Below, in pieces: positions 8,748 through 31,651 of a stretch of DNA of 49,389 nt. The notes below the pieces were generated by a model. The model was given only the letters and a program-made list of their open reading frames with translations. It searched no databases and was not told the origin of the DNA. The stretch is from an uncultured Spirochaetales bacterium (GTDB taxonomy: Bacteria > Spirochaetota > Spirochaetia > Sphaerochaetales > Sphaerochaetaceae): positions 1 through 49,389 of the forward strand of contig CADCOT010000010.1 of the NCBI GenBank assembly GCA_902803145.1. The letters are read 5' to 3'. Position numbers and translations under genes: made by a program. Numbering within the stretch: the stretch's first letter is position 1; the number at the start of each line of letters is the position of its first letter.

Positions 8748-9980
8748 TTACTTTGTCTGTGAGAGGAAGTTGTCGCCTCTGATAACGGCTCCGACTGTAA
8801 ACTCAGGAACAAATCCGTGAGGATCTGTTGTAATCTTTACAGATGCTGTTACATCAAGAGGAACTGTGTAGATTCCGGCTCTGATTGTAGGCTGTGCCTT
8901 CTCAATGATTGTAAGGAAGCTATCTCCATCCTCAATCTCAGAAATCAGACCATGAATACTAATATCTGCTCCGACTCTCCACCATGTTCCGAATTCAAGA
9001 GAAGCACTGAGACTTTCTGTAGATTCACCATCACTATATCTAATAACGTGCAGTCCACCATCAAGTGAAAGAGGAACATCTCCGGTCAAATCAAGTGTCA
9101 AGAATTCTCCAAGTGCAATATTTGCATTAACCCTGAAACCGAACAGAGGTTTATCGTAGAAATACAAGTTACTGTAACCTTCCAATCTGTTATCCAAATA
9201 GAAAGTTCCCTTAATATCAAATGTACCAACCTTAAACTCTGCAAGAGCCTCCAAGAGCCATCTGTCAAAGAGTTTGTGAAGAATTGAATCATCAAGCTTA
9301 CGAGCTGTATCTGTGGTCAGATAGAAGCCAACGTTGGCAAGACCGAACTGGAGTTTAGCACCAACTCTGGGAATAATGCGGTTATATGAGATACGAGAGC
9401 CACGCATGAAAACTCCCTGGCGCATGACAGAAGCTTCAGCCTCAACAAGACCAAGGTTTACCTTTATGTCTGCATACTGAACACTATTATATCTGTTAGA
9501 CAACGGATGCTTTAGGAAATCTGTTGAGTACAAATCAAGTTTAATAAGACCAAAGTCTGCCTTAAGCTGTGCTCTGTTTTGATAATCGTCTTTCATTACG
9601 TAATCAATGTCAAAATCACGTGAGCCCTTTCCTACCTCAAATTCAATCATATCTGTCTTGAATTCTATGGTGTCAATGTACTTAAGAATACTGGCTGTAG
9701 TTGTGTACATATCAGTTGTATCAAAAGTCAAAAGATAGTCAAAACCATGTGCATTGTCAGCATTGGGATCCCACTCTGCAAGAAGCCTTACAGTGAAGAA
9801 ATCTCCGTACACATAGGGCTTGAATTTGAAAACTGCTTTATTTGAACCCTCGAGTGACGGGTCATTTGTAAGATTGAATTCATAACTGATGTCTGATTCA
9901 ATTCCGTAATGCAAGCCATCTGCAAAAGCTGAGAAAGCAACTGCAGCAATGACCAAGATTACCAAAAAAGTTTTTTTCAT
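8748..9980 (-). CDS. Secreted protein of unknown function, possible outer-membrane beta-rich protein
   Basis: Signal peptide MKKTFLVILVIAAVAFSAFA. Alternating hydrophobic/polar pattern with many Y/F/G/D residues. It has its own promoter, a strong SD (AGGGAGGAG) and a terminator. Confidence 0.6.
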   Translation of the reverse strand: MKKTFLVILVIAAVAFSAFADGLHYGIESDISYEFNLTNDPSLEGSNKAVFKFKPYVYGDFFTVRLLAEWDPNADNAHGFDYLLTFDTTDMYTTTASILKYIDTIEFKTDMIEFEVGKGSRDFDIDYVMKDDYQNRAQLKADFGLIKLDLYSTDFLKHPLSNRYNSVQYADIKVNLGLVEAEASVMRQGVFMRGSRISYNRIIPRVGAKLQFGLANVGFYLTTDTARKLDDSILHKLFDRWLLEALAEFKVGTFDIKGTFYLDNRLEGYSNLYFYDKPLFGFRVNANIALGEFLTLDLTGDVPLSLDGGLHVIRYSDGESTESLSASLEFGTWWRVGADISIHGLISEIEDGDSFLTIIEKAQPTIRAGIYTVPLDVTASVKITTDPHGFVPEFTVGAVIRGDNFLSQTK

Positions 9981-10012
9981 AGGGCTCCTCCCTCTTTTAC
10001 TGTATATAAAAT

Positions 10013-10040
10013 ATTATACTTTTTGCTTATAAACAATCAA
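10013..10040 (-). promoter_or_regulatory. Sigma70-like promoter for the 410-aa protein gene
   Basis: On the minus strand, TTGATT, 16 nt, TATAAT. It lies about 30 nt upstream of the ATG at 9980. Confidence 0.5.
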
Positions 10041-10057
10041 AAACTGCCTTGCGTTAC

Positions 10058-10870
10058 TTATTTTTCGGTTATTTTTCCACAAAACCAATCTTTCAGAGAA
10101 CAAATGCGCTTCATAAAAGCACTTGGCAAATCAACCGTTGTGAACAAAACACGTACAGAAGGCTCTTGGTTATAGATTACCGCAAGTCCGGACACTATGA
10201 CACCTTCTTCAGTAAGTTCTGCATCAAGGTATAAGCGTAAAGCATTGGCATCCAAGCATTTAAAACCCATGTACTTAATTGGATTCACATTGCATATTTC
10301 AAGGAAAATCTCATCGTAGTAGCAGTAGTAGTTAATCTGATACAAATTTCCGCCAAATCTTGAATCCTTAAGCCAGGCATAACGTGTAAACTGTTGCGTT
10401 ACAGAATCCGAAACCGGATCGCTTGTTTTTTTCTTATTGTTTTTATCCACAACAAGATAAGCATCCGAGAAGAGAACTTCCGGTTTATCACCTGATCTGT
10501 GGGACAGATATGTAATTCCCTTTATAGTTGAGATAGCCTGTGCCATATTGAAGACAGAAAGATATTTCTGCTGTTCAGTCATATCCTTCATAGAATCTGG
10601 ATACGGAACAAATGAGGAGATGGCAACAGAGAAAGCATTTTCAAGGTTTTCTGTTCTGAATGCCAAATCCTGCATTATTGTATTTTCAGGCATTATCGCC
10701 CCTGTACTCTGTTCAAAGATTGTACTTGCCTCTTCATAGTCACCTGAAAGAAGCATTTCTATCTGCTGATCGTTCATTCTTGCCATAACTGTACGCATGG
10801 GCGAAAAAGCCCACAAAGGCAGACAGAGAGCAAAAACAAGGGCAATCAAAATAATCTTTTTAGTACGCAT
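10058..10870 (-). CDS. Secreted or lipid-anchored protein of unknown function
   Basis: N-terminal signal sequence MRTKKIILIALVFALCLPLWA with a possible loose lipobox (FALC). No recognisable enzymatic motif. It overlaps the upstream sugar-transferase stop by 11 nt. Confidence 0.6.
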   Translation of the reverse strand: MRTKKIILIALVFALCLPLWAFSPMRTVMARMNDQQIEMLLSGDYEEASTIFEQSTGAIMPENTIMQDLAFRTENLENAFSVAISSFVPYPDSMKDMTEQQKYLSVFNMAQAISTIKGITYLSHRSGDKPEVLFSDAYLVVDKNNKKKTSDPVSDSVTQQFTRYAWLKDSRFGGNLYQINYYCYYDEIFLEICNVNPIKYMGFKCLDANALRLYLDAELTEEGVIVSGLAVIYNQEPSVRVLFTTVDLPSAFMKRICSLKDWFCGKITEK

Positions 10871-12263
10871 TTCTGTTTATAAATCCTTTGAAGAACGTCA
10901 GAAAGACAATCCTCAAATCAAATGCAAAACTCCAGTTTTTGATGTAGTACAAATCATATTCTATACGCTTTACAAGCGATGTATTTCCTCTTAGTCCATT
11001 AACCTGTGCCCAACCTGAAATACCGGCTTTCATACGGTGTCTCATGTTGTATCCGGGAATCTCTTTCTCAAAGATCTCCTCAAGTTCAGGCCTTTCCGGA
11101 CGCGGTCCGATAAGACTCATTGATCCCTGAATTACATTGAAGAACTGCGGAATTTCATCAAGGCTTGTTCTTCTGAGGAACTTGCCAATTGCCGTCACTC
11201 TCGGATCATTTTCTTCTGTCCAGTGAGCGCCGCCCTTCTCCTTCATGTCAATTCTCATACTTCTGAACTTGAGCATTGTGAAAATCTTTCCGTCAATTGT
11301 CACACGCTTTTGTTTGTAGAAAACGGGACCGGGAGATGACAGTTTTACAAGCAAGGCCAACAGGAGGAAAAGCGGAGAAAGAATAACTACTGCAAGCGTA
11401 CAGGAAACAAGATCAAAGGCACGCTTGATAAACCATCTTCCGCTTGTCATGTTGAAGCTGTTTATCTCCAGCATGGGAATGTAATGGAAGGAACTGAAAC
11501 GGTTTCCAACATATGTTTTTGGAACTCTTGGGAGAGTGAAGACCCTTTCCTGAAGCAGTTCCATGCCTTCTCTGACAAGTTCAATTTCGCGGTTGTAATC
11601 AGTATCGCTGAAACTGATGACAACCATCTGAGCCTGTGAATCCTTTACAGCTTTGGCAAGCGATGCTGCGTTTATCTGCCTAAGCCCCTTTATCTGGTTA
11701 TCGGTTCCAAGATACTGGTAGTTAATCTTGAGTCTTGATGTTTCTCCACTCTCAATTACTGTGTTGTAGTAATCCCTGAGCCTCTCTCCGTTTCCTACAA
11801 GCAGAACATTTGTCTTAAAACGCCCTGTTTTGATCATCTTTGCAAACAGATTGTTGACAATGTAACGATCCAGTACCAGAAACAAAAACAGCATTACACC
11901 GAACATGAGAAGGTGCATACGGCTTATCTTGTAGTAGAAAACGTAGTAGTAAATTACAACGAAAGTCAGGAATACATAGATTGAAACATAGAACAAGCCG
12001 CCAATTTCTTTTCTCCACTGGCTAGTAAGACGAGCCTCATACATATGTGAACTGTTGAGGAAGAATATTCCGGAGAAAAGTGCAACAAGGCTGAGCATGC
12101 TGAACATCAGAGTTGATTCCTGAGAACCATCCTGAAGCACAAAGAAGCGCAGATAATATGAAACAAACCAAGCAAGAAGGATGGCAATACTGTCAAAGAA
12201 CAAGCGTGTTCTAAACTGAAACTTGCCAAATTCATTAGCTTTTCTTTGCTCTTTATGTTTCAT
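10860..12263 (-). CDS. Polyprenyl-phosphate glycosyl-1-phosphate transferase (WbaP/EpsB-type initiating enzyme)
   Basis: Bacterial sugar transferase C-terminal domain (RAFDL...PLFLL.ALLVKL.S.GPVFYKQ.R....G..F...KFRSM.....DPR.T..G.FLR..SLDE.PQ..NV..G.MSL.GPRP). Four N-terminal TM segments. Confidence 0.9.
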   Translation of the reverse strand: MKHKEQRKANEFGKFQFRTRLFFDSIAILLAWFVSYYLRFFVLQDGSQESTLMFSMLSLVALFSGIFFLNSSHMYEARLTSQWRKEIGGLFYVSIYVFLTFVVIYYYVFYYKISRMHLLMFGVMLFLFLVLDRYIVNNLFAKMIKTGRFKTNVLLVGNGERLRDYYNTVIESGETSRLKINYQYLGTDNQIKGLRQINAASLAKAVKDSQAQMVVISFSDTDYNREIELVREGMELLQERVFTLPRVPKTYVGNRFSSFHYIPMLEINSFNMTSGRWFIKRAFDLVSCTLAVVILSPLFLLLALLVKLSSPGPVFYKQKRVTIDGKIFTMLKFRSMRIDMKEKGGAHWTEENDPRVTAIGKFLRRTSLDEIPQFFNVIQGSMSLIGPRPERPELEEIFEKEIPGYNMRHRMKAGISGWAQVNGLRGNTSLVKRIEYDLYYIKNWSFAFDLRIVFLTFFKGFINRNAY

Positions 12264-12301
12264 GCCACAATTATAGAAAGATGTGGGACATCAGTCAAAC
12301 T

Positions 12302-13318
12302 TTAGAATAAACTATCATAATCATAATTATTAAAGAATTCCCATTCCTGATTACAATACTGATCAACATTATCGTTTGTAATCTGATATCTGCCTTCATG
12401 CATCCACTCAAGCATCTTTGTATTTACTGAGCCGTTGTAATGTCTGGGGTCAATGTAATTATCAAGATTCGTTATTAACTCTTCATTAAGGAAAAAAGAA
12501 AAGATTTTTATATTGTCGTAATTCAACAACTCCCTAATCAAAGCCTCTTCTGTTGCAAGATATGTATTAAGAGAACCCGAGTTGTTAAATTCATCAAACG
12601 TATAAATACTTACAGGAGAGAATATTATATAAAACGTTGTTTCAGGATTGTTCTTTACAAGATTTACTACATTATTTGATAAATTTTCCGTAACGGAACC
12701 ATTAATCCTTTGTCGAGTATTATTCCTTGCTGAACTGCGATTGTACTTACTATCCAAAACCGCCTTTCCTCCCGGTTCTCTATCATAGTAATAGGTGAAC
12801 AAGTCAAAAGAATCCGGTTCCATGCCAAACAGCGTTCTTACTACAACTTTTACTGAAGAAACAAACATATCAATATTCAGGATGTAGCGTACACCGTTTA
12901 AAGTGGTATTCTGTTCATCTGAAGAAGTATAGCCCTGTAAAAGGGCATAATAGTCCAAACACCATAAAACCATTTGAACATTATTGCCAGAACCTAGAGC
13001 GGCAGCAACATAGTCATGTTGTTTAGTCAAATAACTAGCCGCCTCTGCTAAATTAACGGATTTTACATTGAATATTTGGTCAAACTTAGATGTTTTAAAC
13101 CCAATTGCCATGGAATTTCCTGCAATCAAAGAATCATAAGTAAAATGCTCGGCAATCCCCATGTTCTGTTTCCCACTATCAAACAAAATATAAAAAAGGT
13201 TGCTGGAAGGAGCTCTGAATCTGAAACATGGATCTACTAAAAAAACAAGAAGAGCGCTTAAGCCAACAACACATACAATACAGAGAACAGAAATGAAAAA
13301 TAGCTTCTTGTAATTCAT
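12302..13318 (-). CDS. Membrane-anchored extracytoplasmic protein, DltD/SGNH-like partner of the MBOAT acyltransferase
   Basis: One N-terminal TM helix. Candidate block I (IAGNSMAIG) and C-terminal D..H block (IDPRHYNG) resembling DltD-type esterase/acyltransferases. It lies immediately downstream of the MBOAT gene. The call rests on motifs and context. Confidence 0.5.
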   Translation of the reverse strand: MNYKKLFFISVLCIVCVVGLSALLVFLVDPCFRFRAPSSNLFYILFDSGKQNMGIAEHFTYDSLIAGNSMAIGFKTSKFDQIFNVKSVNLAEAASYLTKQHDYVAAALGSGNNVQMVLWCLDYYALLQGYTSSDEQNTTLNGVRYILNIDMFVSSVKVVVRTLFGMEPDSFDLFTYYYDREPGGKAVLDSKYNRSSARNNTRQRINGSVTENLSNNVVNLVKNNPETTFYIIFSPVSIYTFDEFNNSGSLNTYLATEEALIRELLNYDNIKIFSFFLNEELITNLDNYIDPRHYNGSVNTKMLEWMHEGRYQITNDNVDQYCNQEWEFFNNYDYDSLF

Positions 13319-13325
13319 TTAACCC

Positions 13326-14714
13326 TCAATACATTACGTACAAAAAGACTCTTCCGCCGCTCATGGAAAGAACTCCGAACAGAAATAACAACGCTATAGC
13401 CAGAATTGTCTTGTAGTTTGATTTGCAACCGGAGACAATCTTTGTTGAATTGGGTGCCAAAAACAGAACAATAAATGTAACGACAAAATCTATTACAACC
13501 CATCCGATATTCTGCATAAGACCCTGAGGAAGAAGAATACTTATTGGAGCGTACTGAAGAGCAACCGTAATCGTCTGACTAATTCCACCGCTCATATCAA
13601 ATGAAAGAATAGTTCTGATTACCTCTATGGCATTATCTAAAGAAATAGCACGGAAGAATATCCAGGAGAAAACTACGAAAACCATGGTTAACATCCAACC
13701 TATAAGTTTTGGAAGCTTTGCAAGAGGCTTTTCAAAAATCCTGTATATGACCATGGCTAGCCCGTGAATGCAACCCCATACAATATAGTTCGCCCCACTT
13801 CCATGCCAGATTCCGCTTATAATGAAAACCACCATTATATTCAGATACATCCTGACTCTGCCCTTTCTGTTTCCACCAAGCGGAATGTAAATGTACTTAG
13901 TCAGAAATGATGTGAGAGAAATATGCCATCTTTTCCAGAAATCTCGGATAGAAACGGCTTTATAAGGCGAGTCAAAGTTCTCAGGAAGATCTATTCCCAA
14001 CAGTTTTCCAATTCCAATTGCCATATCACTGTAAGCACTGAAATCAAAATATATCTGAACAGCAAACGCAACTACAGAAATGAGGACAGAGATAGAATTT
14101 AACATATACGTCCATTCAAATCCAATATCCGCAACCTCGGCAAACCTATCTGCAATAAATATTTTTTTCACAAGCCCTATGGAGAACAGGTAAAGACCTT
14201 TGAACATTTTCTCCCAATCAGGATTTATGGTTTTATCGTTTTTACATTGAGAGAGAAACAACTGAGGCGGAGTAATCGGTCCCTGCATAAGTTTTGGAAA
14301 AAAGGTTTCGTAGAATAAGAAGTCAATAACAGTTACGTTTCTAAGTTCCTCATCGTTAATCATCTCCACTAGAAACGCAATGTTTTGGAATGTGTAGTAA
14401 CTTATTCCTAGTGGCAGAATCAGCCCATGGCCATACTTGTAGAAACATAGCAGAAGACAGTTCAGAACTACTCCGATTGTAACTATTCGTTTTCTGTTGG
14501 CCGATCTTTGAATCAGAAGCATCAGAACATAGTTAAAAACAATACTAATAGCGAAAACCCAAAGGTTGTGAAGACTTGAATATGCACAGAAGAACAAAGA
14601 TGAAACTATCAATAACAGTTTGGCAGCAATTGCGCTCCTCTTGCCGACTAAATAGTAAAGAAGTACAACAGCAGGAAGAAATATCAATGTAAAAGAATAA
14701 GTACTGAATGTCAT
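13326..14714 (-). CDS. MBOAT-family membrane O-acyltransferase (AlgI/DltB-like)
   Basis: Polytopic membrane protein with the MBOAT signature FW.RWHISL..F...YIYIPLGGNR and the conserved His in SGIWHG. Confidence 0.9.
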   Translation of the reverse strand: MTFSTYSFTLIFLPAVVLLYYLVGKRSAIAAKLLLIVSSLFFCAYSSLHNLWVFAISIVFNYVLMLLIQRSANRKRIVTIGVVLNCLLLCFYKYGHGLILPLGISYYTFQNIAFLVEMINDEELRNVTVIDFLFYETFFPKLMQGPITPPQLFLSQCKNDKTINPDWEKMFKGLYLFSIGLVKKIFIADRFAEVADIGFEWTYMLNSISVLISVVAFAVQIYFDFSAYSDMAIGIGKLLGIDLPENFDSPYKAVSIRDFWKRWHISLTSFLTKYIYIPLGGNRKGRVRMYLNIMVVFIISGIWHGSGANYIVWGCIHGLAMVIYRIFEKPLAKLPKLIGWMLTMVFVVFSWIFFRAISLDNAIEVIRTILSFDMSGGISQTITVALQYAPISILLPQGLMQNIGWVVIDFVVTFIVLFLAPNSTKIVSGCKSNYKTILAIALLFLFGVLSMSGGRVFLYVMY

Positions 14715-14718
14715 ATTT

Positions 14719-15636
14719 TTACTTCACCAAGAAATATAGACAAAAATGAGAAATCCACGCAGGGGCTGCCAGTAAAAGCTGAAGCAGATACAGAACAAAA
14801 CCGCCATGTACAAGATACGGATTTCCTTTTCTGTATTCTTTTGATGTAAGGAAAAAACCAAAGCAGTAAGGAAGAAGGCACTTAAGTCCTTTTGTCTGAT
14901 ACTTTTTTCTGTTTTCAAGCTGCCATCTGCAAGACCAAACCTTATTTATCACAGTTTGTCTGCTGATCTTTTGGTTTGAAAGATTGTTTCCTTCATCAAC
15001 GTAGTATTTTCTGATTATCAGGTTGCTATACCAGGATTTGTATTTCTCCTTCATGGGCTCCCAAACAACCCTTTCGGAAACAAATTTCACACCAACAGGT
15101 TCCGGAAAGCGCATACTACCTATTGCTGAAGCAGAAATTAGTGCAATTTTTTCTCCGCCAACTTGGAAGTCTGTCCTTGATGCTTCTTCTCTGCTTTGAG
15201 AATTAATGCCATCAGGATAAGGAAGTCCGACAATTTTGTCTGAATTTTGGGTAACACAGCGCCCTACATAGCACCAATAGTCTTTTCGCTTTTCCACAGG
15301 AACGTTATCCAGCAGTCCTACCAACTTCTCAATGCCGTCAGGAAACAGTTCATCATCAGAATCTAGCTGAACCAGGTATTCACCGTTGCAATGATTCCAG
15401 GCAACGTTTGTTGCTGTATGCTTTCCGCCGTTTTCTTTGTGATAGATATAAACAGGAAAAGAAACCTCTTTTGAATACTGCTCAAGTAACTGAAGAACAT
15501 TATCGGTAGAACCGTCATCCACAATAATGTGTTCCAAGTTCTTATATGTCTGAGCCTTCATTGAGTTGAATACACGATGAATCTTATCAGCACGGTTGTA
15601 GACACATGTGTATACACTTACCAGAGGATTATCCAT
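14719..15636 (-). CDS. Glycosyltransferase family 2
   Basis: VSVYTCVYNR...IIVDDGSTD...DSDDEL motifs and C-terminal TM segments. The track start at 15666 is TTG. ATG 15636 (MDNPLVSVY) is preferred and lies 4 nt after the upstream stop. Confidence 0.88.
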   Translation of the reverse strand: MDNPLVSVYTCVYNRADKIHRVFNSMKAQTYKNLEHIIVDDGSTDNVLQLLEQYSKEVSFPVYIYHKENGGKHTATNVAWNHCNGEYLVQLDSDDELFPDGIEKLVGLLDNVPVEKRKDYWCYVGRCVTQNSDKIVGLPYPDGINSQSREEASRTDFQVGGEKIALISASAIGSMRFPEPVGVKFVSERVVWEPMKEKYKSWYSNLIIRKYYVDEGNNLSNQKISRQTVINKVWSCRWQLENRKKYQTKGLKCLLPYCFGFFLTSKEYRKGNPYLVHGGFVLYLLQLLLAAPAWISHFCLYFLVK

Positions 15637-15640
15637 AACG

Positions 15641-17518
15641 TCAGTAGTAAATCCTGAATCCGACAATTGCCATGGCCGTTACATATGGAACCTGCCAGTT
15701 ACTATAATAACCTTCTACCTCACTTGTTCTGCCGGTATTGATCCAGCCGTTGGGATTGACGGGGTCATAGTCATAGTTGTAGTCAATAGCGTTATAAATT
15801 GGATTTCCATCTGGGTCTAAGAGCGGACTACGTGTTTTGGTATAGTCATAGTCTCTCTTCCATTCAGCAATTCCCTGAAGTCCGACAAATACAGAGAACG
15901 GAAAACCTTCAAACTGTTTTTCAAGAACAACAGAAACATCAAGAATATTGTTCCAAATATTATGGAAGAAATCCTTGTCAGCATAATCTCCAGCAACTGA
16001 TGCATCATAGTTCATCACAGTCAAAACAGTCGTTCCGTTTCTTTCACCCACCGGATAAACATCTACAGCGTACTGAGCACTTCTCATCTGGTCCTTAACT
16101 TTTACGTTAAGCGAATAGCCGTTGCCGAGTTGGGAATCAAATGAAAAAGCTATTTCAAGAGAATCCGGATTGAGAGGATAACCAATTAGCTTACCCTTGT
16201 TTACAAATGGAATCTGTATTGTTGTATTACCCCAAGGGTGCTCATTTGCAGACCAATTCCTGTGAGCACCATAGAATGGAGGAATATAAGTAAACTGGAT
16301 ATTCATTGTACTGAAAAGCCCAATTTTTGCAGGAAATGTTAATCCTAGTTGGTAGGCAAACATATTTCTTGCATGCTTAAAGAAGGTTTTGAGGTGAATA
16401 TCTCTGTCAAACTCTGCTATAGACATTCCTGCATAGACCTTCAGCGTGTTTGGGAAGACATAGGATAAATCAAAACCTGTAATAAGGTTGTCAAAATCTC
16501 CAAGATTGTCCTGAACGACTATATATACTGCAAGAGGATTGAGATATGAAAGTTCAAAACGCTTTCTCCAGACAAGAGATTCATACACTCCAAAGTCAAA
16601 ATGCCCTACTCTTAAATCCAGCCTGTGAGCTGAAAACATATTTCCAAATTCATCAGAATGCAGACCGTCTGAAGGCCACGTATAGCCATCAAAGGTATTC
16701 AATGCAAACTTCTGAAGCGGAGAATGAATTACAGAATACTCAATCCAATCTAAAGGACGTACATCAAATTCAAATGCCTCCATTGTGCTTCCGCCGGAAG
16801 ACAGTTGAAGATTAACAGCAGCAGGTCCCCATTCTCTCTTGATTGTACCCCATCTGAGATTGAGCCTGTTATCAAAGAAGGAAGCAGAGATTTCCGGCAT
16901 AGATGATACTCCCCAAACTATGCCCATATCATTATCAAGGTCTAGACCGCCCTTCATATATTTGGCATCGATATCAATTGGAAAATCAAGTGCGTTGTAA
17001 GCCCATGTATTAAGATTCTCTATATGCATACTGAAATTAATGTCAAATGAGAACAGATTAAACAAGTTTCCCATTACATAGGCTGTGGCTCTGTTTCTTG
17101 AATCAAGCAGCTTACGATCAAGTGTGTTGTATCCAACCTTATTAGTTGAAACAAACTTGGCGCCTATAGAAGCATTTGTGTCGTTGTTTCCGAATGAATA
17201 ACGTCCGGAATAAAGAACATCCTTAAATGAAGAAGTATTTGAAACACCATATGACTTTTCAAGTCTTGCAACAGTACTGTCAAGGAAGGCTTGCTCCTGC
17301 TGATTAAGAGCTTCAGTACTTCTGATAGCTGCCAAGAGATTAAGTATGAAATCCACGTTATAGGGCTTTATATAACTCTGAACGGGTATCAATCCCCTCA
17401 ATTCTGCTGATTCAATAATGTCATATGATGCATCATTAAGAGGGACAGAATGATGACTGTCTGCGAACACTGAAAAGGTTAATATCAATAAGCAAAATAA
17501 AACTAATATCTTCTTCAT
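15641..17518 (-). CDS. Signal-peptide outer-membrane protein, possibly capsule-assembly Wzi-like
   Basis: Signal peptide MKKILVLFCLLILTFSVFA. N-terminal LNDASYDIIESAELRGLIP resembles the Wzi N-terminal helix motif. LRWGTIKREWGPAAVNLQLSS resembles the Wzi WGPG..SL.LS motif. Ends in aromatic GFRIYY. Comparison by eye only. Confidence 0.45.
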   Translation of the reverse strand: MKKILVLFCLLILTFSVFADSHHSVPLNDASYDIIESAELRGLIPVQSYIKPYNVDFILNLLAAIRSTEALNQQEQAFLDSTVARLEKSYGVSNTSSFKDVLYSGRYSFGNNDTNASIGAKFVSTNKVGYNTLDRKLLDSRNRATAYVMGNLFNLFSFDINFSMHIENLNTWAYNALDFPIDIDAKYMKGGLDLDNDMGIVWGVSSMPEISASFFDNRLNLRWGTIKREWGPAAVNLQLSSGGSTMEAFEFDVRPLDWIEYSVIHSPLQKFALNTFDGYTWPSDGLHSDEFGNMFSAHRLDLRVGHFDFGVYESLVWRKRFELSYLNPLAVYIVVQDNLGDFDNLITGFDLSYVFPNTLKVYAGMSIAEFDRDIHLKTFFKHARNMFAYQLGLTFPAKIGLFSTMNIQFTYIPPFYGAHRNWSANEHPWGNTTIQIPFVNKGKLIGYPLNPDSLEIAFSFDSQLGNGYSLNVKVKDQMRSAQYAVDVYPVGERNGTTVLTVMNYDASVAGDYADKDFFHNIWNNILDVSVVLEKQFEGFPFSVFVGLQGIAEWKRDYDYTKTRSPLLDPDGNPIYNAIDYNYDYDPVNPNGWINTGRTSEVEGYYSNWQVPYVTAMAIVGFRIYY

Positions 17519-17527
17519 TGGTCTGAA

Positions 17528-18649: not shown

Positions 18650-18716
18650 CAGTCTGATGATAACACCAATAAGGTTTACTTTCCATATGACATGAAAAGT
18701 GATATTGTCTGAAAAT

Positions 18717-22196: not shown

Positions 22197-22198
22197 AG

Positions 22199-23410
22199 AT
22201 GAAGAAACTCCTTTTGCTTGGTGGCTCCAGATATCTGATTCCTGTTATTGACTGTGCAAAGAAATTGGGAGCATACACCATAACTTGCGACTATCTCCCT
22301 GACAACTATGCTCATAAATGTTCAGATGAATACTGCAACATCAGCATTATTGATAAAGAAGCTGTTTTAGAAAAAGCCAAATCTTTGAAGATAGACGGAA
22401 TAATGTCCTTCGGAACCGACCCCGGTGTTACCACTGCAAGTTACGTTGCCGAAAAGCTTGGTTTGCCAAACACCGGACCATATAAATCCGTATCAATCTT
22501 GCAGAACAAGGGCCTTTTCAGAAAATTCTTGCAGGAACACGGTTTCAACGTTCCAGTTTCCAAAAGTTACAGTTCTTCAGACACAGAAAAAGCAATTTCA
22601 GATTTCTCTCCGCTCCCCTTCCCTGTCATAGTAAAACCCACTGACAGCGCAGGTTCGAAAGGAGTTTCAAAAGTAACTGAATCAAATCAGTTAGGTAAAG
22701 CAATTAGTTTTGCCTTGGATAATTCTTTGTCAGGTCAGTTCATTGTTGAGCAGTATCTTGAACAAACAGGTTGTTCTTCTGACTCAGAATGCTTTTCAAT
22801 TGACGGAAAACTGGTTTTCTCTTCTTGGTCCAGTCAGTACTTTGACCACAGTGCATCAAACCCCTTTACGCCTACCGGTTTTACTTGGCCATCTACAATC
22901 TCTGAAAAGAACATTAAAGAACTTGAGTCTGAACTTGCAAGACTGATAAAACTTCTTGATATGGGGACAACAATCTACAACGTTGAAGCCAGAGAAACTA
23001 CAGACGGAAAGGCTTACCTTATGGAGGTGTCTCCCAGGGGCGGAGGAAACAGGCTTGCAGAAATGGTCAGATATTCAACAGGCGTAGACTTGATTGAAGC
23101 AAGTGTAAGAGCAGCCTTGGGACTTCCGTTGAATGAGGTAAAACAGAAAGAGCCTGAAGACGGATGGGTAGAACTTGTTCTTCACAGTGAATCAGATGGC
23201 CATTTCAAAGGTCTTGAAGTAAACCCGGCAGTAGAAGAATTTGTTGTAGAAAAAGACCTTTGGGTTAAAACCGGCGATATTGTTGAAGGCCTTACTGGAG
23301 CAAACAAATCAATTGGAACCCTCATCCTTAAAACAAAAAATGAGAGGCAGTCCCGTGAAATACTGAACTGCCCCGAAAAGTTTGTGAGAGTTATTACTTC
23401 CCCCAACTGA
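22199..23410 (+). CDS. ATP-grasp domain protein (putative amide ligase)
   Basis: ATP-grasp signatures FPVIVKPTDSAGSKGV, EQYLE, and NVEARE...YLMEVSPRGGGN. Starts 2 nt after the aminotransferase stop. Confidence 0.8.
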   Translation: MKKLLLLGGSRYLIPVIDCAKKLGAYTITCDYLPDNYAHKCSDEYCNISIIDKEAVLEKAKSLKIDGIMSFGTDPGVTTASYVAEKLGLPNTGPYKSVSILQNKGLFRKFLQEHGFNVPVSKSYSSSDTEKAISDFSPLPFPVIVKPTDSAGSKGVSKVTESNQLGKAISFALDNSLSGQFIVEQYLEQTGCSSDSECFSIDGKLVFSSWSSQYFDHSASNPFTPTGFTWPSTISEKNIKELESELARLIKLLDMGTTIYNVEARETTDGKAYLMEVSPRGGGNRLAEMVRYSTGVDLIEASVRAALGLPLNEVKQKEPEDGWVELVLHSESDGHFKGLEVNPAVEEFVVEKDLWVKTGDIVEGLTGANKSIGTLILKTKNERQSREILNCPEKFVRVITSPN

Positions 23411-25163: not shown

Positions 25164-25244
25164 AATTGTGTTGATTATAGTGCATTTAGACTAAGATTTA
25201 CAGGCTCTATAAAACCTGTTACCATTTTTCTTCGAAGGCGGAAT

Positions 25245-26345
25245 ATGGAACCTATAAGAGTCTTGTTGGTAAGTACTACAATGGATCGCGCAGGTGCGGA
25301 AACACTTATTATGAACATCTATAAGTCTATTGATCGTACTCGCGTTCAATTTGATTTTATTCTGCATTGTAACTACAAGTCCCACTATGAAGATGAAATA
25401 GTTGCTATGGGAGGTAGAGTTTTCAAACTTCCACCGTACAGAATTATCAATGAATATTCATTCCGCAAAGCTTATAGAGAGTTCTTCAAAGCTCATCCCG
25501 AGTACAAAATAATTCACGCTCATATTTACAATACTGCTTCAATTTTTCTTGATGAAGCAAACAAGTGCGGTCTACACACCATTGCACATAGCCACAATAC
25601 CTCAAATGGCAAAGGTCCAAAAGCTTGGTTCAGAAATTACCTTCACAGAAATCTTTACAAGATAGCCGAGTATAGATTTGCTTGTTCTGAGCAGGCCGGA
25701 AAGTGGCTATATAAAAACAAGGCCGATTTCACCGTTGTAAGAAATGGAATCGATACCGAAAAATTCAGTTTCAGTGAAGAGAAAAGAGAAATCGGCAGAA
25801 AAGCTCTTGGAATCTCCCCGGAAAAAACCATCGTAGGACATGTAGGAAGATTTGAAGTTGCCAAGAATCATGACCGTCTTATAGACATCTTCAGCAACTA
25901 TCACAAGTCAAATCCAGACAGCGTACTTGTGCTTGTTGGTTCAGGCTCGCTTGAGAATGAAATAAAAGCTAAAGTAGCAACTCTAGGTCTTCAAGACTGT
26001 GTAATCTTTACCGGAGTAAGACAGGACATAGACAATTTACTTTGCGCAATGGATGTTTTCCTGTTTCCAAGTTTATACGAAGGTCTTCCGGTCACCCTTG
26101 TTGAGGCACAATGCACGGGCATTCCGTGCGTAGTGTCGGACATTATTACGGATGAAGTTGATATTGCAGGCCTTATGAAAAAGGTTTCACTTTCTGACGA
26201 TAACAATAGTTGGGCACATGCAATTGAAGATGCACAGAAGATAGAAAGAAAGGATTGCTCTGATATTATCAGAAAAGCCGGCTATGAAATCAAAGACATA
26301 GCTAATTGGCTTCAGAACTTCTATATTGAAACTGAAAAACTGTGA
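25245..26345 (+). CDS. Glycosyltransferase family 4 (GT-B fold)
   Basis: FLFPSLYEGLPVTLVEAQCTGIP motif. SD AAGGCGGA upstream of the ATG. Confidence 0.88.
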   Translation: MEPIRVLLVSTTMDRAGAETLIMNIYKSIDRTRVQFDFILHCNYKSHYEDEIVAMGGRVFKLPPYRIINEYSFRKAYREFFKAHPEYKIIHAHIYNTASIFLDEANKCGLHTIAHSHNTSNGKGPKAWFRNYLHRNLYKIAEYRFACSEQAGKWLYKNKADFTVVRNGIDTEKFSFSEEKREIGRKALGISPEKTIVGHVGRFEVAKNHDRLIDIFSNYHKSNPDSVLVLVGSGSLENEIKAKVATLGLQDCVIFTGVRQDIDNLLCAMDVFLFPSLYEGLPVTLVEAQCTGIPCVVSDIITDEVDIAGLMKKVSLSDDNNSWAHAIEDAQKIERKDCSDIIRKAGYEIKDIANWLQNFYIETEKL

Positions 26346-26365
26346 TAGTATTGTGCTAGAAGCAA

Positions 26366-27334
26366 ATGAATAAGCAACTCATCATTGAAACGAATGATTA
26401 TTGGAACATCAAAAAAAACCCCTTCTTCTCTGTCATTACTCCTGTCTATAATCGTCGTGAGTTGCTAACAAGACTGATTGAAACAGTTAAGAACCAATCG
26501 TTTAAAGATTTTGAATATATAATTGTCAACGATGGATCAACTGAAGACCTTGATACATTAGTCCTGCCATTTCTTAAAGAATCTTCCTTCCCTGTAATGT
26601 ACATAAAGAAACCGAACGGTGGCGTTCATACTGCTAGAAATGCAGGAATAAGCAAAGCACGCGGATATCTTTCTGTATTGATTGATTCAGATGATGAGCT
26701 TATGAGCAACGCATTGGAATCGTTTTACAATGCTTGGCAAACTATTCCGGAACAAGATAAAGATAAATACTTCAGAGTTGCAGCTCTTTGTGTCACAGAG
26801 AAAGGAATTAAAGGTCAGTTATTTCCTGAGAATATCAATTCCCTACCCATCAAGAAAGCTGCAATTCAATATGAAAGACATTTGACGGAAATATTTCATG
26901 CTGACAAAACATCGGTTCTAAAAGAAAACCCCTGGCCCGAACCCGAAGGGATTACTTTTGTAACTGAAAGTATTATTTGGTTTAAATTACTTCGTGAGTA
27001 TAGGGTTCTGTGCATAAACGAGTTTCTCAGAGTCTATCATACAGAGGGTGATGACCATGTATTTGTCAACGGGAAGGCAAAATCAACACAATATATTAAA
27101 AACATTGTATGGTCATATGCCTATTTTCTGAACAATTGGAAAGAAAGGAAAACCCATTTAAAGAATTATTCCAACATGATTTCAATATATTGCGTTCTTT
27201 CAAAGGTTTTGAAGAAAAGAGGCGAAACATTGAGAGATGATATGCGTCTGAATCATCTCAGAGAGAAACTATTGGCAATTATTCTTTTTATTCCATCATC
27301 AATTATTGCAATTAAATACAATAACAGAAAGTAA
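26366..27334 (+). CDS. Glycosyltransferase family 2
   Basis: FSVITPVYNR...IIVNDGSTED...DSDDEL motifs and a C-terminal TM segment. Confidence 0.88.
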   Translation: MNKQLIIETNDYWNIKKNPFFSVITPVYNRRELLTRLIETVKNQSFKDFEYIIVNDGSTEDLDTLVLPFLKESSFPVMYIKKPNGGVHTARNAGISKARGYLSVLIDSDDELMSNALESFYNAWQTIPEQDKDKYFRVAALCVTEKGIKGQLFPENINSLPIKKAAIQYERHLTEIFHADKTSVLKENPWPEPEGITFVTESIIWFKLLREYRVLCINEFLRVYHTEGDDHVFVNGKAKSTQYIKNIVWSYAYFLNNWKERKTHLKNYSNMISIYCVLSKVLKKRGETLRDDMRLNHLREKLLAIILFIPSSIIAIKYNNRK

Positions 27335-28357
27335 TTATATTATCTTCTTTCCAAGAAGCATTTCCATTTTTTCTTTCAAACAGAAAAACATCAAATGGTG
27401 ATAACTCTTTTTTATTAATAGACATGCAGCCTTCTCTGTTTCTGAAAGCTTTCCGTGATACCCTTTGCGGGCGATAAACTCCCTTACGAACTTAGCATCA
27501 GAGTACTCATCCAACCATTTTTTCTTTTGGGAAAACGGAATACGGAAAAACAAAACTCGCATAATATCCATATTCAGCCAATATTCCATATATTTTCTGA
27601 AATCCTCAAAATCTTCATCGTTAAAGAATCCATTGTTCTTCAAAAAATCTAACACCAGCTCTTCTTTTTCATATGTGACAATGCCGGGATGGTATTCTTT
27701 ATGAGAAGTGATGCTTCTAGGATTGAAACGGTAGTTATAAAGAATATCGGGAATAACAACCGCTCGGTTGGAATACTGTATTATTTCCAGCGTTTGTACC
27801 TGATCTTCCCCTTTTGAAATATGAAAGTAAGGAGAAAAATCCACTCTTCCTAGGTTCTCACGCTTCGCAGCCTTTCTACATAAACTGTTCAAATTGCCAT
27901 TAAGAAAAACAAGTCTTGAAAAAGAACGTTTATCATCTATTACGACTGCAGAATCATCAGGAGAATTGGTAGAATCTATAACTTTTCCTTCTGACACTCG
28001 TCTTAAACCATAGATTACACAATCTGCATCATATTTTTTGGATGCTTCACGTATTCTTTCCAAGGTGTTAGGTTCCAACCAGTCATCGGAATCAAGATGA
28101 ACAATCCAATCCCCTTCCGCTTTTTTCAGAGCAAAGCGTCTGGTTGCAAAAAGCCCTTCGTTTGGCTTATGGAAAACTTTTATGAAAGGATATTCAGATG
28201 CATACCTATCACAAATAGAGGCACTTGAATCTGTAGATCCATCGTCAACAAGGATTAATTCGTAGTCTTTAACTGTCTGATTTAATACAGACCGGACACA
28301 ATCTTCAAGATATTTCTCTACATTATATACAGGACAGAGAATACTGAATTCAGGCAT
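27335..28357 (-). CDS. Glycosyltransferase family 2
   Basis: FSILCPVYNVEKYL...ILVDDGSTD...DSDDW motifs. Its stop codon abuts the stop of the convergent GT2 gene. Confidence 0.88.
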   Translation of the reverse strand: MPEFSILCPVYNVEKYLEDCVRSVLNQTVKDYELILVDDGSTDSSASICDRYASEYPFIKVFHKPNEGLFATRRFALKKAEGDWIVHLDSDDWLEPNTLERIREASKKYDADCVIYGLRRVSEGKVIDSTNSPDDSAVVIDDKRSFSRLVFLNGNLNSLCRKAAKRENLGRVDFSPYFHISKGEDQVQTLEIIQYSNRAVVIPDILYNYRFNPRSITSHKEYHPGIVTYEKEELVLDFLKNNGFFNDEDFEDFRKYMEYWLNMDIMRVLFFRIPFSQKKKWLDEYSDAKFVREFIARKGYHGKLSETEKAACLLIKKSYHHLMFFCLKEKMEMLLGKKII

Positions 28358-29543
28358 TATCCCTCATACCAACCAAAGCAACATATGAATTAAGTATGAT
28401 GATTGAAGGCACTTTGTCATAGTAAGAAACATTTGTCATCTCACTGATAAGAAGAACTATATTCAGAGCCAAAGCCAAATAGAAACAATTGTCCAGTTTC
28501 TTCTTAGCCAATCCTATTACAGAGCCCGTCAGATTAAGCGCATAATAGAGAATAAAACCTACAGCACCTCCGCAAGCAAGAAGCTCAGCATAGTTGTTAT
28601 GAAGATAGTAGTTAATCTCATAGAATTGCCCGGCAATTGAATGGGTTCCACCCATTCCTACACCAAGCACGGGATGCTCTTTAAAGATACTGAGTCCAAG
28701 CTTGATAAGACCGATTCTGATTTCACTTGATCCGTCCCCGCTATTTGATAAGGTTGCCAATGCTTCTTCCATTCTTCCCATGATAGGAGCAAGGAACGGA
28801 AGATTCCTCATTAGGTACAAAGCCGCTACCAAGGCAACAACAACACCCACAGCAATCAGCTTTCTCCACCCGCGTGCACGAAGGAAAACAAGAATAAACA
28901 AACCGGCAAAGAAGCAGATAAACCCTTCCCTGCTACCTGTTGCAAGAATTGCACTTAATCCGAACAGAAGAATTGGAATAGTCCAATATTTTTTCTCAAA
29001 TATCAGATAGTACATTCCGACTATCATAGACATGGCAATACTGAAACTCATTCCATTTTGGTCATTAATGTCAGCACCAATTCTGCTTCCTGTTAGAATT
29101 GAATCAATTATTTCTTTATGGCCGTAGTAGAGGTAGTAGAAACAGGCATAAAACACACCGGCCACAAAGACTGCATTGACAATCAACATACGCTTCTTTT
29201 CTGAAGCACAATAGTTGTACAAGAGGACTGCCAGGACAAAAAGTCTGAATACGGTCTTTGCTCTCATCATTGCCATATCGTGGTCTATTGCCCAAGTGGT
29301 TGAAAGAAAACAGAAAGCCGAGAATGCTGCATATAGAACTGAGAACGTTGATATCACATGTGAATGTTCGATAATTCCATAAATTAACAGCAGACCCATT
29401 AGGATTACAGCAACAAAGTTTGCATAACGCTCCGTTGCAAGTGCTGCATTTGAAAAGATAAAAAATACAGTGAAGTAAATATAGACGAACGGATCTATTA
29501 CCTTGGTCAGTTGTTCTTTTTTTGAAGAAAGACTATTAATCAT
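28350..29543 (-). CDS. O-antigen ligase / Wzy-like polymerase family membrane protein
   Basis: About 10-12 TM helices. GSREGFI and G.G.GG....HNNYAELLACGGAVGF match the O-antigen ligase (Wzy_C) domain pattern. The track start at 29567 is TTG. ATG 29543 is preferred. Confidence 0.8.
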   Translation of the reverse strand: MINSLSSKKEQLTKVIDPFVYIYFTVFFIFSNAALATERYANFVAVILMGLLLIYGIIEHSHVISTFSVLYAAFSAFCFLSTTWAIDHDMAMMRAKTVFRLFVLAVLLYNYCASEKKRMLIVNAVFVAGVFYACFYYLYYGHKEIIDSILTGSRIGADINDQNGMSFSIAMSMIVGMYYLIFEKKYWTIPILLFGLSAILATGSREGFICFFAGLFILVFLRARGWRKLIAVGVVVALVAALYLMRNLPFLAPIMGRMEEALATLSNSGDGSSEIRIGLIKLGLSIFKEHPVLGVGMGGTHSIAGQFYEINYYLHNNYAELLACGGAVGFILYYALNLTGSVIGLAKKKLDNCFYLALALNIVLLISEMTNVSYYDKVPSIIILNSYVALVGMRDNA

Positions 29544-29563
29544 TTCCCTTGTTCCTTTCCCAA

Positions 29564-31651
29564 TCAATAAAGCCAGTTAATTCCAAGAAAGATTTCATAC
29601 TCAAGACGTACATCCTCTCCCCTGAGTTTTGCAAATAATGTATCTGCATTGAAACCAAGTGAGAACCTGAACGGATATGCAGGATGCGAATCAAGTATTG
29701 CAATTCCCTCAACACCTACACTGTGAAGATAATTAACCTTAGATTTGTCTATAAACATGACAAAATCATAGAACGGATTTATGTAAGTATGCCCCATGTC
29801 CTCAAAGTTAAACAGAGCAGTTGTTAAATTAACGTTTCCGGCAATGACTGCCTTTGCAGGGAAACCTCCGGAACTGATAGCAGGGCTTTCATCAAGAATA
29901 CCTCTGAGAAGAGTTCCAAGACCTCCCTTATCAAAGTTAAACTCGTTGTAAGTAAATGAGTTGTAAGAGTAGAAATAGTCACTATCTGCCTGCGAATTCA
30001 ACTTATAAGGATCACTGGAAGATGTTTTGTCAAACCACAACCCTGAGTCACCGGATTTAGCCATTGCCAAAAGCCTGATTGAAGGATTGAAGAAGGCATT
30101 CTTCAACGGGAATGCAGTAATACTGCCTCTTAAGAAAAGTTGCGGTTTGAAACTGAATGCAAAACGTCCGGCCAACTGCAGATTGTACTTGATTCCGTGT
30201 CTGAAATTGTCCCTAAATGCAAAGAAATCCTCTCCGGAATCTATTCTGTTTATCTCTCCACCTGCCAGACCTGCAGAGAATGCAAGTTCAAGGTAAGGAG
30301 AATATTTGAATTTGTTCTCATTGCGTATAAAAGTGTTGTACAAGGTAACAATCGGAGAAACGTTCAGTTTGCCGTTTAAGAAGCCAAATGACTTTTCTAC
30401 CCTGAAATCAAAATCAAATCTGTAGAGATTTTTGTCATCATTACGCCATGTTTTGAAAATTACAGAGTCTGTGTAGTCATCAAGCATGTTGAATGAGAAA
30501 CTGGAATTTGTCTTTACGTAGTTATATTTTTCAACAGATGTCTTAGTTCTGTAGATTTCCCAGTAAACGTTGTTACTCAGCTTTTTCCCTGTAATATTCC
30601 CATCAGGCATGGCCACTGTAACAGTATTGTCCAATGAATAAAATCTTGAAGCTATCATGCTGTTCTGTGCAGGCTGAAATGTAAATACCGGAGTCTCAGA
30701 AACAGAAAAACCTCCAACCTTTATGTCAGAAACACTGAAGGTGAATTTATGGTATGAATCACTGCTCACAAACGGTGAAGGAAGAATCGGATAGTAAAGT
30801 CCGTTATATGTAGCTGACAGCTTTGCTGATCCCAGAGCCATATCAACATAACCGACATCAAGTGCCCATTTGTTTATTACAGGCTTGGCTGTAGGTTTGT
30901 AGTCAATTTCAAATCCTACGTTTACTTTACCGGGTCCTGCCTGCAGGCCTTTCTCTGCAATTTTGAATACATATGCAGATTTGGTTTTATCTCCGTAGTA
31001 ATAGAGAAGATTCAGAGATGTTGTAATCTCTGCAGTACCTATTTTCCATCCTGTTTCATCAAGAACAAGTTTCAGAAATGAGGTTTCCGTATTCAGAAGA
31101 TCAATATCACCTGACAACTCAGCAGAAAGTTTCAGATCATTAATCTTTATTCCTGAAATTGGGATACTGAACTTATAATCACCGTATTTGAATGATTTCT
31201 CCTGCTGAACACCGTCTATGGAGATGTCCATTGTGGCCATCAAGCCAAAGAGGTTTTTCTCTTTGAATCTGATTCCGAATACAAATCCGTTGTTAGAGTC
31301 ATACTTCGGGTACGGGAAGATGATAGTTGAATCTGCATCCTCCACGTAAACTTCAATAGTTACGCTGTAGTCCTCATCAACAGAAGAAGTAATTGAGTAA
31401 TTAACAGAAGAAACATTGAAGAGGTTTGTATTCCACAGGGCTGTACCTTTACGTTTTACCGCTGCTTCCAAAGCCTCAAGACTATCAAACTTTTCCTCTG
31501 TATGCGGATTAACAAGGTAATCAATGGCCTGTTCTGTAGTCTTGCCAAGAACTGTATACTTGTACCCTATTACAGTGTATGTTCCTGCATACAATCCAAA
31601 AACACATATTACAATCAGCACTAATGCTGCTATTATTTTCTTTGAAAACAC
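29564..31651 (-). CDS. Omp85-superfamily-like outer-membrane protein with one POTRA-like domain
   Basis: GTG start and signal/anchor sequence MFSKKIIAALVLIVICVFGLYA. POTRA-like YKYTVLGKTTEQAIDYL....FDSLEALEAAVKRKGTALWNTNLF....YSVTIEVYVED. GGLGTLLRGIL resembles the Omp85 loop-6 (V/L)RG(F/Y) lid-lock motif. C-terminal LGINWLY looks like a beta-signal. Assigned by eye. Confidence 0.5.
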   Translation of the reverse strand: MFSKKIIAALVLIVICVFGLYAGTYTVIGYKYTVLGKTTEQAIDYLVNPHTEEKFDSLEALEAAVKRKGTALWNTNLFNVSSVNYSITSSVDEDYSVTIEVYVEDADSTIIFPYPKYDSNNGFVFGIRFKEKNLFGLMATMDISIDGVQQEKSFKYGDYKFSIPISGIKINDLKLSAELSGDIDLLNTETSFLKLVLDETGWKIGTAEITTSLNLLYYYGDKTKSAYVFKIAEKGLQAGPGKVNVGFEIDYKPTAKPVINKWALDVGYVDMALGSAKLSATYNGLYYPILPSPFVSSDSYHKFTFSVSDIKVGGFSVSETPVFTFQPAQNSMIASRFYSLDNTVTVAMPDGNITGKKLSNNVYWEIYRTKTSVEKYNYVKTNSSFSFNMLDDYTDSVIFKTWRNDDKNLYRFDFDFRVEKSFGFLNGKLNVSPIVTLYNTFIRNENKFKYSPYLELAFSAGLAGGEINRIDSGEDFFAFRDNFRHGIKYNLQLAGRFAFSFKPQLFLRGSITAFPLKNAFFNPSIRLLAMAKSGDSGLWFDKTSSSDPYKLNSQADSDYFYSYNSFTYNEFNFDKGGLGTLLRGILDESPAISSGGFPAKAVIAGNVNLTTALFNFEDMGHTYINPFYDFVMFIDKSKVNYLHSVGVEGIAILDSHPAYPFRFSLGFNADTLFAKLRGEDVRLEYEIFLGINWLY

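Follow-up and report, generated by a model that had tools for sequence, protein, structure and literature searches.

Can a polysaccharide made by a Wzx/Wzy pathway cross the outer membrane without an outer membrane polysaccharide export (OPX) protein and a polysaccharide copolymerase (PCP)? The known routes across this membrane are the Wza-type helical pore, the barrels of synthase pathways, and the composite of a short OPX protein with a barrel. The question is raised by a stretch of DNA from an uncultured Spirochaetales bacterium (contig CADCOT010000010.1; all 49,389 nucleotides analyzed here are called the window), in which a glycan block of 18 genes (window positions 8748 to 31651, from the listing of open reading frames [ORFs]) contains genes for four large secreted proteins, here named P1 to P4. 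An annotation made earlier from the sequence alone (the initial annotation) had suggested that a noncanonical set of beta-barrel proteins serves passage of the glycan through the outer membrane or its anchoring there. Here, we find that conserved predicted barrels do accompany Wzx/Wzy loci in this lineage; that they export or anchor the polymer is what we infer.

RESULTS

A predicted outer membrane gene module recurs at glycan loci of related spirochetes

We scanned GTDB species genomes with a P2 profile, which yielded 34 loci, and searched the ORFs of these loci with the window proteins and with family hidden Markov models. Nearly all 34 loci come from metagenome-assembled genomes (MAGs) of Sphaerochaetaceae/Spirochaetales of rumen or gut origin, which supports the spirochetal host that the initial annotation had assumed only conditionally. 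Across these loci, we observed a recurrent codirectional array of genes for a phosphoglycosyltransferase (PGT), a P4-like protein, a P2-like protein, one or two DUF6675 proteins, and one or two P3-like proteins. Homologs of the PGT or of glycosyltransferases (GTs) were present in 27/34 loci; at least one other module member was also present in 27/34, and all three in 13/34, several of the loci without the full module being cut by contig ends. DUF6675 genes adjoin P2-like genes in 20/34 loci. Intergenic gaps are short (25, 19, 31, −4, 3, and 13 bp in locus L013), indicating an operon, and the same distant loci carry Wzx and Wzy_C genes. Genes for P4 homologs with 87% down to 49% identity invariably come first on the mgtE side of a GT-rich locus, the GT content of which varies, and a 33%-identical relative is encoded divergently to a Wzi-like gene, a PGT gene, and a DUF6675 gene, beside Wzx and teichoic-type genes. 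Because the arrangement recurs in relatives, it is not attributable to chance. These comparisons show that a lineage-specific module of predicted outer membrane proteins (P4, P2, P3, and DUF6675, with P1 added in this clade) travels with glycan loci.

The initial annotation had proposed comparative genomics to see whether homologs of all four proteins co-occur with Wzx/Wzy loci. For P2, P3, and P4, and in addition for DUF6675, we found linkage to Wzx, Wzy, PGT, and GT genes, often in one operon; P1 proved to be confined to a narrow clade and to lie outside the conserved module. It is absent from all 34 P2-profile loci, and only 8 representative clusters were found among 1.84 billion proteins. 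In a metagenome scan made with an alignment of 4 closer P1 sequences, three closer contigs (L042, L043, and L044) keep the P1 slot in the order P2-PGT-DUF6675-P1-UDG-IspE, so that the P1 homologs found so far (n = 3) all adjoin DUF6675/PGT. In more distant relatives, radical-SAM and HAD genes occupy this position.

The module also diverges faster than its neighbors. Between the window and L042, identity was 43% for P2 (window 15641 to 17518 versus L042 5691 to 7517), 61% for P1, and 63% for DUF6675, compared to 85% for the PGT, 83% for the UDG-family protein, and 80% for IspE. Of the module members, P2 (179 homologs found) is conserved most widely and also varies most in sequence. The faster divergence fits surface exposure, matching to a variable glycan, or both, and suggests that P2, P1, and DUF6675 may be under diversifying selection or undergo allele exchange matched to glycan type.

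Three further observations concern these relatives. In a rumen Spirochaetales MAG (L045, 1 to 16878), genes for P4-like, Wzi-like, PGT, DUF6675, and PAP2 proteins stand beside teichoic-acid-type genes (Glyphos_transf, IspD-like, and Acyl_transf_3), indicating that the module is not tied to one glycan chemistry. In L002 (4836 to 6241), the mgtE gene next to P4 seems split or truncated, with two overlapping ORF fragments and a called gene of 165 amino acids. Finally, module contigs occur in bins labeled Clostridium, Faecalibacterium, Acutalibacteraceae, Comamonas kerstersii, Bacteroidaceae, Oscillospiraceae, and Bacillota (L014, L016, L025, L026, and L035 to L038); these labels probably reflect binning or labeling errors rather than true hosts.

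OPX, PCP, and ABC exporter genes are absent from the locus

Pfam scans of the 18 block ORFs gave no match to Poly_export, Wzz, GNVR, tyrosine kinase, or ABC families, and phmmer searches with Escherichia coli Wza, Wzb, and Wzc gave no match at an E value of ≤10 in the window and 595 kb of related loci. Neither OPX nor PCP genes were found in ∼46 related neighborhoods, even where the module and the PGT form a tight operon. The initial annotation had reported no Wza, Wzc, Wzz, or ABC exporter in the block, and the family scans and phmmer agree with it at the level of the locus. Its premise that the host lacks classical lipopolysaccharide (LPS) fits the statement that Leptospira are the only spirochetes known to contain LPS (preprint, PMC12236494), which applies to the phylum rather than to this genome.

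One candidate for a hidden PCP, a recurrent protein of 338 to 342 amino acids in L028 and L030, was rejected, having no transmembrane segment and carrying an RDPRD motif. This cytoplasmic protein (L028, 5656 to 6672; L030, 4408 to 5436) is encoded just upstream of a small PGT gene and has no Pfam match; we read the motif as sulfotransferase-like.

The secreted proteins comprise three unrelated families and DUF6675

The ORFs of P1 to P4 (410, 625, 589, and 695 amino acids), originally listed with signal peptides, are present at the positions given for them (Table 1). In each protein, one hydrophobic segment at the N terminus is followed by an AxA-type cleavage site, and helical transmembrane segments are otherwise lacking. 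In the DUF6675 protein too, encoded between P1 and the PGT, the signal peptide is the sole hydrophobic feature; it is thus a fifth secreted member of the set, missed by the initial annotation. DUF6675 is a conserved module member, is often duplicated in relatives, and has no informative PDB match. Direct Pfam and NCBIfam scans of P1 to P4 gave no significant match, and the P2, P3, and P4 family profiles found no relevant match among PDB sequences. By sequence comparison, the four proteins fall into three unrelated families (P2/P3, P4, and P1). P1 and P4 were considered as truncated Wzi proteins and rejected: in hhalign comparisons with Wzi-like profiles, the alignments were limited to the signal peptides, so we treat both as families separate from the Wzi-like proteins. 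AlphaFold2 (AF2) models cover P1 and P4. Both are beta-rich, and all of their top PDB matches are outer membrane barrels, in keeping with the beta-barrel fold first predicted for them.

Pairwise BLAST detected no similarity between P2 and P3; their family profiles aligned by hhalign with 97.6% probability (E = 2.7 × 10−12; 355 columns). With family matches counted at an E value of ≤0.01, PF14052 (Caps_assemb_Wzi; gathering score, 30.1 bits) was matched by 10/32 P2-family members (best, 1.8 × 10−7 and 31.0 bits; P0135) and by 4/13 P3-family members (best, 9.8 × 10−8 and 31.8 bits; P0147). Both of these best members score above the gathering threshold, and matches in the families covered up to profile positions 52 to 389 of 392. 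Since the profiles align and homologs match PF14052, we assign P2 and P3 to the Wzi superfamily as predicted remote paralogs. The description of two proteins as Wzi-like is thereby upheld by transitive Pfam matches and the profile-profile probability.

The P4 family is very small, with 16 homologs among 5.8 billion proteins. In the P4 model (pLDDT 78, pTM 0.57), the N terminus has a beta-alpha-alpha-beta-beta order (strand 24 to 35, helices 40 to 47 and 58 to 73, strands 78 to 88 and 94 to 105; pLDDT 73 to 82) and no POTRA Pfam match; ∼28 consecutive membrane-length strands follow residues 24 to 105. Foldseek ranked BamA/TamA first (E = 7 × 10−6), with LptD and the SlpA barrel of Deinococcus next, at template-modeling (TM) scores of 0.2 to 0.36. 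All 19 aligned family members end in F or Y and share an invariant R583-G584 ("LRGI/V") five strands before the C terminus and an invariant F627-x-D629 in the second of the last five strands, where the trailing G is absent. We take these to resemble the Omp85 loop-6 (V/I)RG(Y/F) and strand-13 (F/G)xDxG motifs, with which they agree in strand position. PF01103 (Bac_surface_Ag) and POTRA Pfam families had no match at an E value of ≤1 in any of the 19 members, the P4 profile matched no PDB sequence, and hhalign detected no relationship to E. coli BamA or TamA (2% and 0.1% probability, respectively). On these three negative tests, P4 was rejected as an Omp85 member, and we call it a POTRA-like large-barrel protein of an uncharacterized family. 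Of the first label, Omp85/POTRA-like, the resemblance therefore survives at the level of fold (Foldseek E = 7 × 10−6; TM 0.2 to 0.3) and is not borne out by sequence tests.

The AF2 model of P1 is a barrel (pLDDT 77, pTM 0.69). Its best Foldseek match is the alginate porin AlgE (E = 1.5 × 10−9; TM 0.45 to 0.47, hence <0.5 and a likeness at the fold level only), and the next matches are 18-strand OccK/OprD porins.

The block encodes a Wzx/Wzy-type pathway

Pfam and NCBIfam scans over all 18 block ORFs showed that the block encodes a repeat-unit pathway of the Wzx/Wzy type, including O-acylation and amino-sugar modification (Table 1). They agree with the enzymes listed in the initial annotation: a PGT (TIGR03025, 403 bits versus a cutoff of 295.55), four GT2 and two GT4 enzymes, Wzx, a Wzy_C protein, an MBOAT protein, an aminotransferase, and an ATP-grasp ligase. 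The ligase probably amidates a sugar or attaches an amino acid to one. The Wzy_C protein is most likely the repeat-unit polymerase, given its context and given that L002, in which Wzy_C is absent among the variable GT genes, has an EpsG-family protein. The 338-amino-acid protein encoded 3′ of the MBOAT gene had been labeled DltD-like. We found no Pfam, NCBIfam, or PDB match and no detectable likeness to DltD, leaving that label without sequence support. Both this protein and the MBOAT protein are absent from L042, and the former is possibly an extracytoplasmic partner of the acyltransferase.

TABLE 1 Genes of the glycan block and the hairpin at its left edge, by window position
Feature	Position	Strand	Call
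Intrinsic-terminator-like hairpin	8709..8728	−	8-bp GC-rich stem, then T run
P1, 410 aa	8748..9980	−	Signal peptidase I signal peptide; predicted outer membrane beta-barrel, clade specific
DUF6675 protein, 270 aa	10058..10870	−	Signal peptide; Pfam PF20380, 7 × 10−33
PGT, large WcaJ/WbaP-type polyprenyl-phosphate hexose-1-phosphate transferase	10860-12263	−	Bac_transf, 9.3 × 10−69
338-aa protein, 3′ of MBOAT gene	12302..13318	−	One N-terminal hydrophobic segment (membrane anchor)
MBOAT-family membrane O-acyltransferase	13326-14714	−	PF03062, 3 × 10−28
GT2 glycosyltransferase	14719-15666	−	Pfam
P2, 625 aa	15641..17518	−	Signal peptide; C-terminal ...RIYY; predicted distant Wzi-family barrel
GT4 glycosyltransferase	17528-18754	−	Pfam; true start probably downstream of listed GTG
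GT2 glycosyltransferase	18699-19679	+	Pfam
Wzx flippase	19666-21102	+	Polysacc_synt_3, 8 × 10−97
DegT/DnrJ/EryC1 sugar aminotransferase	21102-22196	+	Pfam, 1.7 × 10−96
ATP-grasp ligase	22199-23410	+	Pfam
P3, 589 aa	23394..25163	−	Signal peptide; predicted second Wzi-family barrel, distant P2 paralog
GT4 glycosyltransferase	25245-26345	+	Pfam
GT2 glycosyltransferase	26366-27334	+	Pfam; close counterpart lacking in the 87%-related L001
GT2 glycosyltransferase	27335-28357	−	Pfam
Wzy_C-family membrane protein	28350-29567	−	∼9 transmembrane segments; PF04932, 7 × 10−16
P4, 695 aa	29564..31651	−	Signal peptide; predicted POTRA-like domain and ∼28 membrane-length strands; aromatic C terminus

The block is bounded by housekeeping genes

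The block is limited on the left by a terminator and tRNA-Val and on the right by mgtE. The hairpin lies between the 3′ end of the P1 gene and tRNA-Val (8577 to 8648), and the placement of the locus against a tRNA gene and a terminator resembles that common for genomic islands. Both flanks consist of housekeeping genes: uridine kinase, LepA, FtsH, TilS, Pth, tRNA-Gln, IspE, a UDG-family protein, and tRNA-Val on the left, and MgtE, an FAD-dependent protein, a further GT4, LarA-like and 6PGD proteins, and others on the right. G+C content is 36 to 42% within the block (calculated for 8000 to 32000) versus 43 to 48% in these flanks. Strand switches define five transcription units (18754 to 8748 [−], 18699 to 23410 [+], 25163 to 23394 [−], 25245 to 27334 [+], and 31651 to 27335 [−]), and the P1 to P4 genes are confined to units 1, 3, and 5. 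The initial count of four units therefore gives way to five, while the three said to carry barrel genes stand. A promoter scan found 49 sites versus 50.5 expected from shuffles, i.e., no enrichment. As listed, the divergent GT4 and GT2 genes begin with GTG codons (at 18754 and 18699, respectively) and share 56 bp; their true starts are probably internal ATGs, leaving a very short divergent promoter region.

A GT4 gene (34734 to 35867 [−]) lies outside the block, past mgtE and the FAD-dependent gene, and L001, the 87%-related locus, has an extra GT-D gene (4953 to 5831) beside the counterpart of this outlying GT4. Based on these two genes, the glycan region may extend beyond the right boundary first assigned to it. 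On the left, tRNA-Val(CAC) (8577 to 8648 [−]) falls within the N-terminal portion of the 282-amino-acid UDG-family ORF as listed (7885 to 8733 [−]); translation of the tRNA yields the stretch "...SVGECYLHTVEVVGSNPIAP...", and the true UDG start must therefore be downstream of the tRNA. Unrelated to the glycan genes, a 405-amino-acid protein (41386 to 42603 [−]) that has one membrane anchor, at its N terminus, and matches no Pfam family is encoded next to tRNA-Pro.

DISCUSSION

On balance, we favor the view that this locus specifies a surface polysaccharide in a gut or rumen spirochete and that the module acts on the polymer at the outer membrane. By domain content, the large PGT starts an undecaprenyl-PP-linked repeat unit, which the six GTs, the aminotransferase, and the ATP-grasp ligase build and decorate. 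The unit is flipped by Wzx, O-acylated by the MBOAT protein, and most likely polymerized by the Wzy_C protein; the module would then bring the completed polymer across the outer membrane or onto it. The channel may be P4, P1, or both; the Wzi-like barrels P2 and P3, matched to the serotype-specific glycan, may be lectin-type anchors or additional pores; and DUF6675 is a putative periplasmic accessory. Periplasmic OPX and PCP proteins, if needed, would be encoded elsewhere.

Several points weigh against this view. Binding or conduction of polysaccharide by the module proteins is a prediction from sequences and models. The TM scores of P4 are low to every template, and P4 has no sequence link to a known translocon. 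P1, missing from most module-bearing relatives, cannot be a general channel. The assignment of P2 and P3 to Wzi was made from sequence; P2 of the window had no PF14052 match in the Pfam scan, and P3 of the window reached only E = 0.13 and 11.6 bits, below the 30.1-bit cutoff. Moreover, Wzi of E. coli functions in anchoring rather than in export (PMC9601211). Lastly, the absence of OPX and PCP genes holds for the locus and the related neighborhoods, a search not extended genome-wide, and class-3 OPX proteins, which are periplasmic only and require a barrel partner, were reported in 2/3 Sphaerochaeta genomes (Saidi et al. 2022, Table S4). Of 49 Spirochaetes genomes in the same survey, 0 have class-1, 2 have class-2A, 2 have class-2B, and 7 have class-3 OPX proteins.

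Given these class-3 genes, an unlinked OPX/PCP pair could serve this locus. The locus would then be part of a composite translocon of the known kind, with P1 or P4 as the partner porin of an unlinked class-3 OPX protein and a PCP and with P2 and P3 as Wzi anchors, and only the unlinking of genes would be noncanonical. In Wzx/Wzy pathways of Myxococcus, an AlgE-like 18-strand barrel (EpsX/WzpX) works with a short periplasmic OPX protein and a PCP, and a porin role has been suggested for homologs that consist only of a Wzi barrel and are encoded close to OPX genes (PMC9601211, PMC9603273). AlgE, which the P1 model matches best in fold, is also the closest fold reported for EpsX (PMC9601211), and class-3 OPX proteins are on record in 2/3 Sphaerochaeta and 7/49 Spirochaetes genomes. 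However, we judge this explanation unlikely. OPX genes described to date usually adjoin their barrel gene (41/48 myxobacterial OPX genes; PMC9601211), and we found neither OPX nor PCP genes in the window or the ∼46 neighborhoods despite the tight module-PGT operons. Class-3 OPX matches also occur in monoderm phyla and so do not prove an export role, and P1, a candidate partner porin, is absent from most relatives that have the module. It is likewise doubtful, in our estimate, that Sphaerochaetaceae-type spirochetes, which are diderms, export a Wzx/Wzy polysaccharide with no OPX or PCP at all, by a self-contained machine of P4, two to four Wzi-derived barrels, and DUF6675 whose genes accompany that of the initiating PGT.

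We consider it distinctly less probable that the barrels take no part in polymer transit and are instead surface anchors only, acceptors or beneficiaries of glycosylation, or nutrient porins coregulated with the coat. For the acceptor version, the Wzy_C protein would be a ligase or O-oligosaccharyltransferase attaching the glycan to lipid or to the barrel proteins, and the Wzy_C Pfam family, of which the locus encodes one protein, does include WaaL ligases and PglL-type O-oligosaccharyltransferases. E. coli Wzi is dispensable for export (PMC9601211), and the AlgE-like and OccK-like folds are shared with uptake porins. Nevertheless, the variable GT block of L002 lacks a Wzy_C gene and includes one for a protein of the EpsG polymerase family, and the tight operon coupling of module and PGT across many genera is hard to square with unrelated porins. 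That unrelated outer membrane protein genes merely hitchhiked into a variable genomic island is scarcely credible: the low G+C content relative to the flanks, the adjacent tRNA gene, and the clade specificity of P1 would suit such an island, but three of the four families and DUF6675 recur with glycan genes in 27/34 independent loci, mostly in one operon, the P1 slot is kept in L042, L043, and L044, and synteny thus contradicts chance colocation for P2, P3, P4, and DUF6675.

Returning to a module that handles the polymer at the outer membrane, these data tie Wzx/Wzy glycan genes in this lineage to a different outer membrane set, which includes the unannotated P4 family and DUF6675. If the module exports or anchors the polymer, the list of export solutions grows, DUF6675 and many Wzi homologs outside enterobacterial capsule loci gain a function, and the likely serotype-determining surface structures of abundant uncultured rumen and gut spirochetes are identified. 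Export by the module with neither OPX nor PCP, if true, would be a fourth polysaccharide route across the outer membrane; if an unlinked class-3 OPX protein serves the module, the system would be a new example of the composite kind in a new phylum. Whether a Wzx/Wzy polymer crosses the outer membrane without OPX and PCP is thus a testable question. We found no description of the arrangement in literature on DUF6675, on PF14052, on Wzi with spirochete or Treponema, or on Sphaerochaeta with LPS; within the library searched, neither DUF6675 nor Wzi-like proteins of spirochete glycan loci are mentioned by any paper, and the supplements of Schwabe et al. hold no spirochete data.

How does the module compare to known systems? 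P2 and P3 belong, by the transitive matches above, to the superfamily of Wzi (PF14052), the outer membrane lectin of E. coli K30/Klebsiella group 1 capsules. Like Wzi, they are encoded within a Wzx/Wzy locus, and proteins of their type vary strongly between close relatives; in Klebsiella, wzi alleles track the capsule (K) type. Unlike Wzi, they have N-terminal regions of ∼170 to 220 residues not covered by the Wzi profile, are 110 to 145 amino acids longer (taking Wzi to be ∼480 amino acids), occur as two to four paralogs per locus, and have no wza-wzb-wzc genes alongside. P4 resembles Omp85 proteins (BamA/TamA/TpsB) in that its model opens with the beta-alpha-alpha-beta-beta order, BamA and TamA rank highest among its PDB matches, and its C terminus is aromatic. 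It differs from them in having ∼28 modeled strands rather than a 16-strand barrel and in TM scores to BamA/TamA no better than those to LptD or SlpA. P1 is an AlgE-like predicted barrel of a size similar to that of the synthase-dependent porin (410 versus ∼490 amino acids), with a sequence identity of only 8 to 10%; unlike AlgE/PgaA/BcsC systems, the locus has no synthase or TPR scaffold, its pathway being of the Wzx/Wzy type.

The nearest precedent is the Myxococcus composite translocon (EpsX/WzpX, EpsY/WzaX, and a long PCP; PMC9601211, PMC9603273, PMC12819527), in which, as here, an outer membrane barrel is encoded by the gene cluster of a Wzx/Wzy pathway. As for EpsX, the closest solved fold of P1 is AlgE. 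Unlike in Myxococcus, the adjacent short OPX protein (Poly_export/PES motif) and the PCP are missing from the locus and related loci, and P1 lacks conservation across the lineage, in which the Wzi-like proteins and the P4 family are the conserved predicted barrels. The system is therefore best described as a previously undescribed, barrel-assisted form of Wzx/Wzy surface-glycan assembly that draws on relatives of Wzi and on uncharacterized families.

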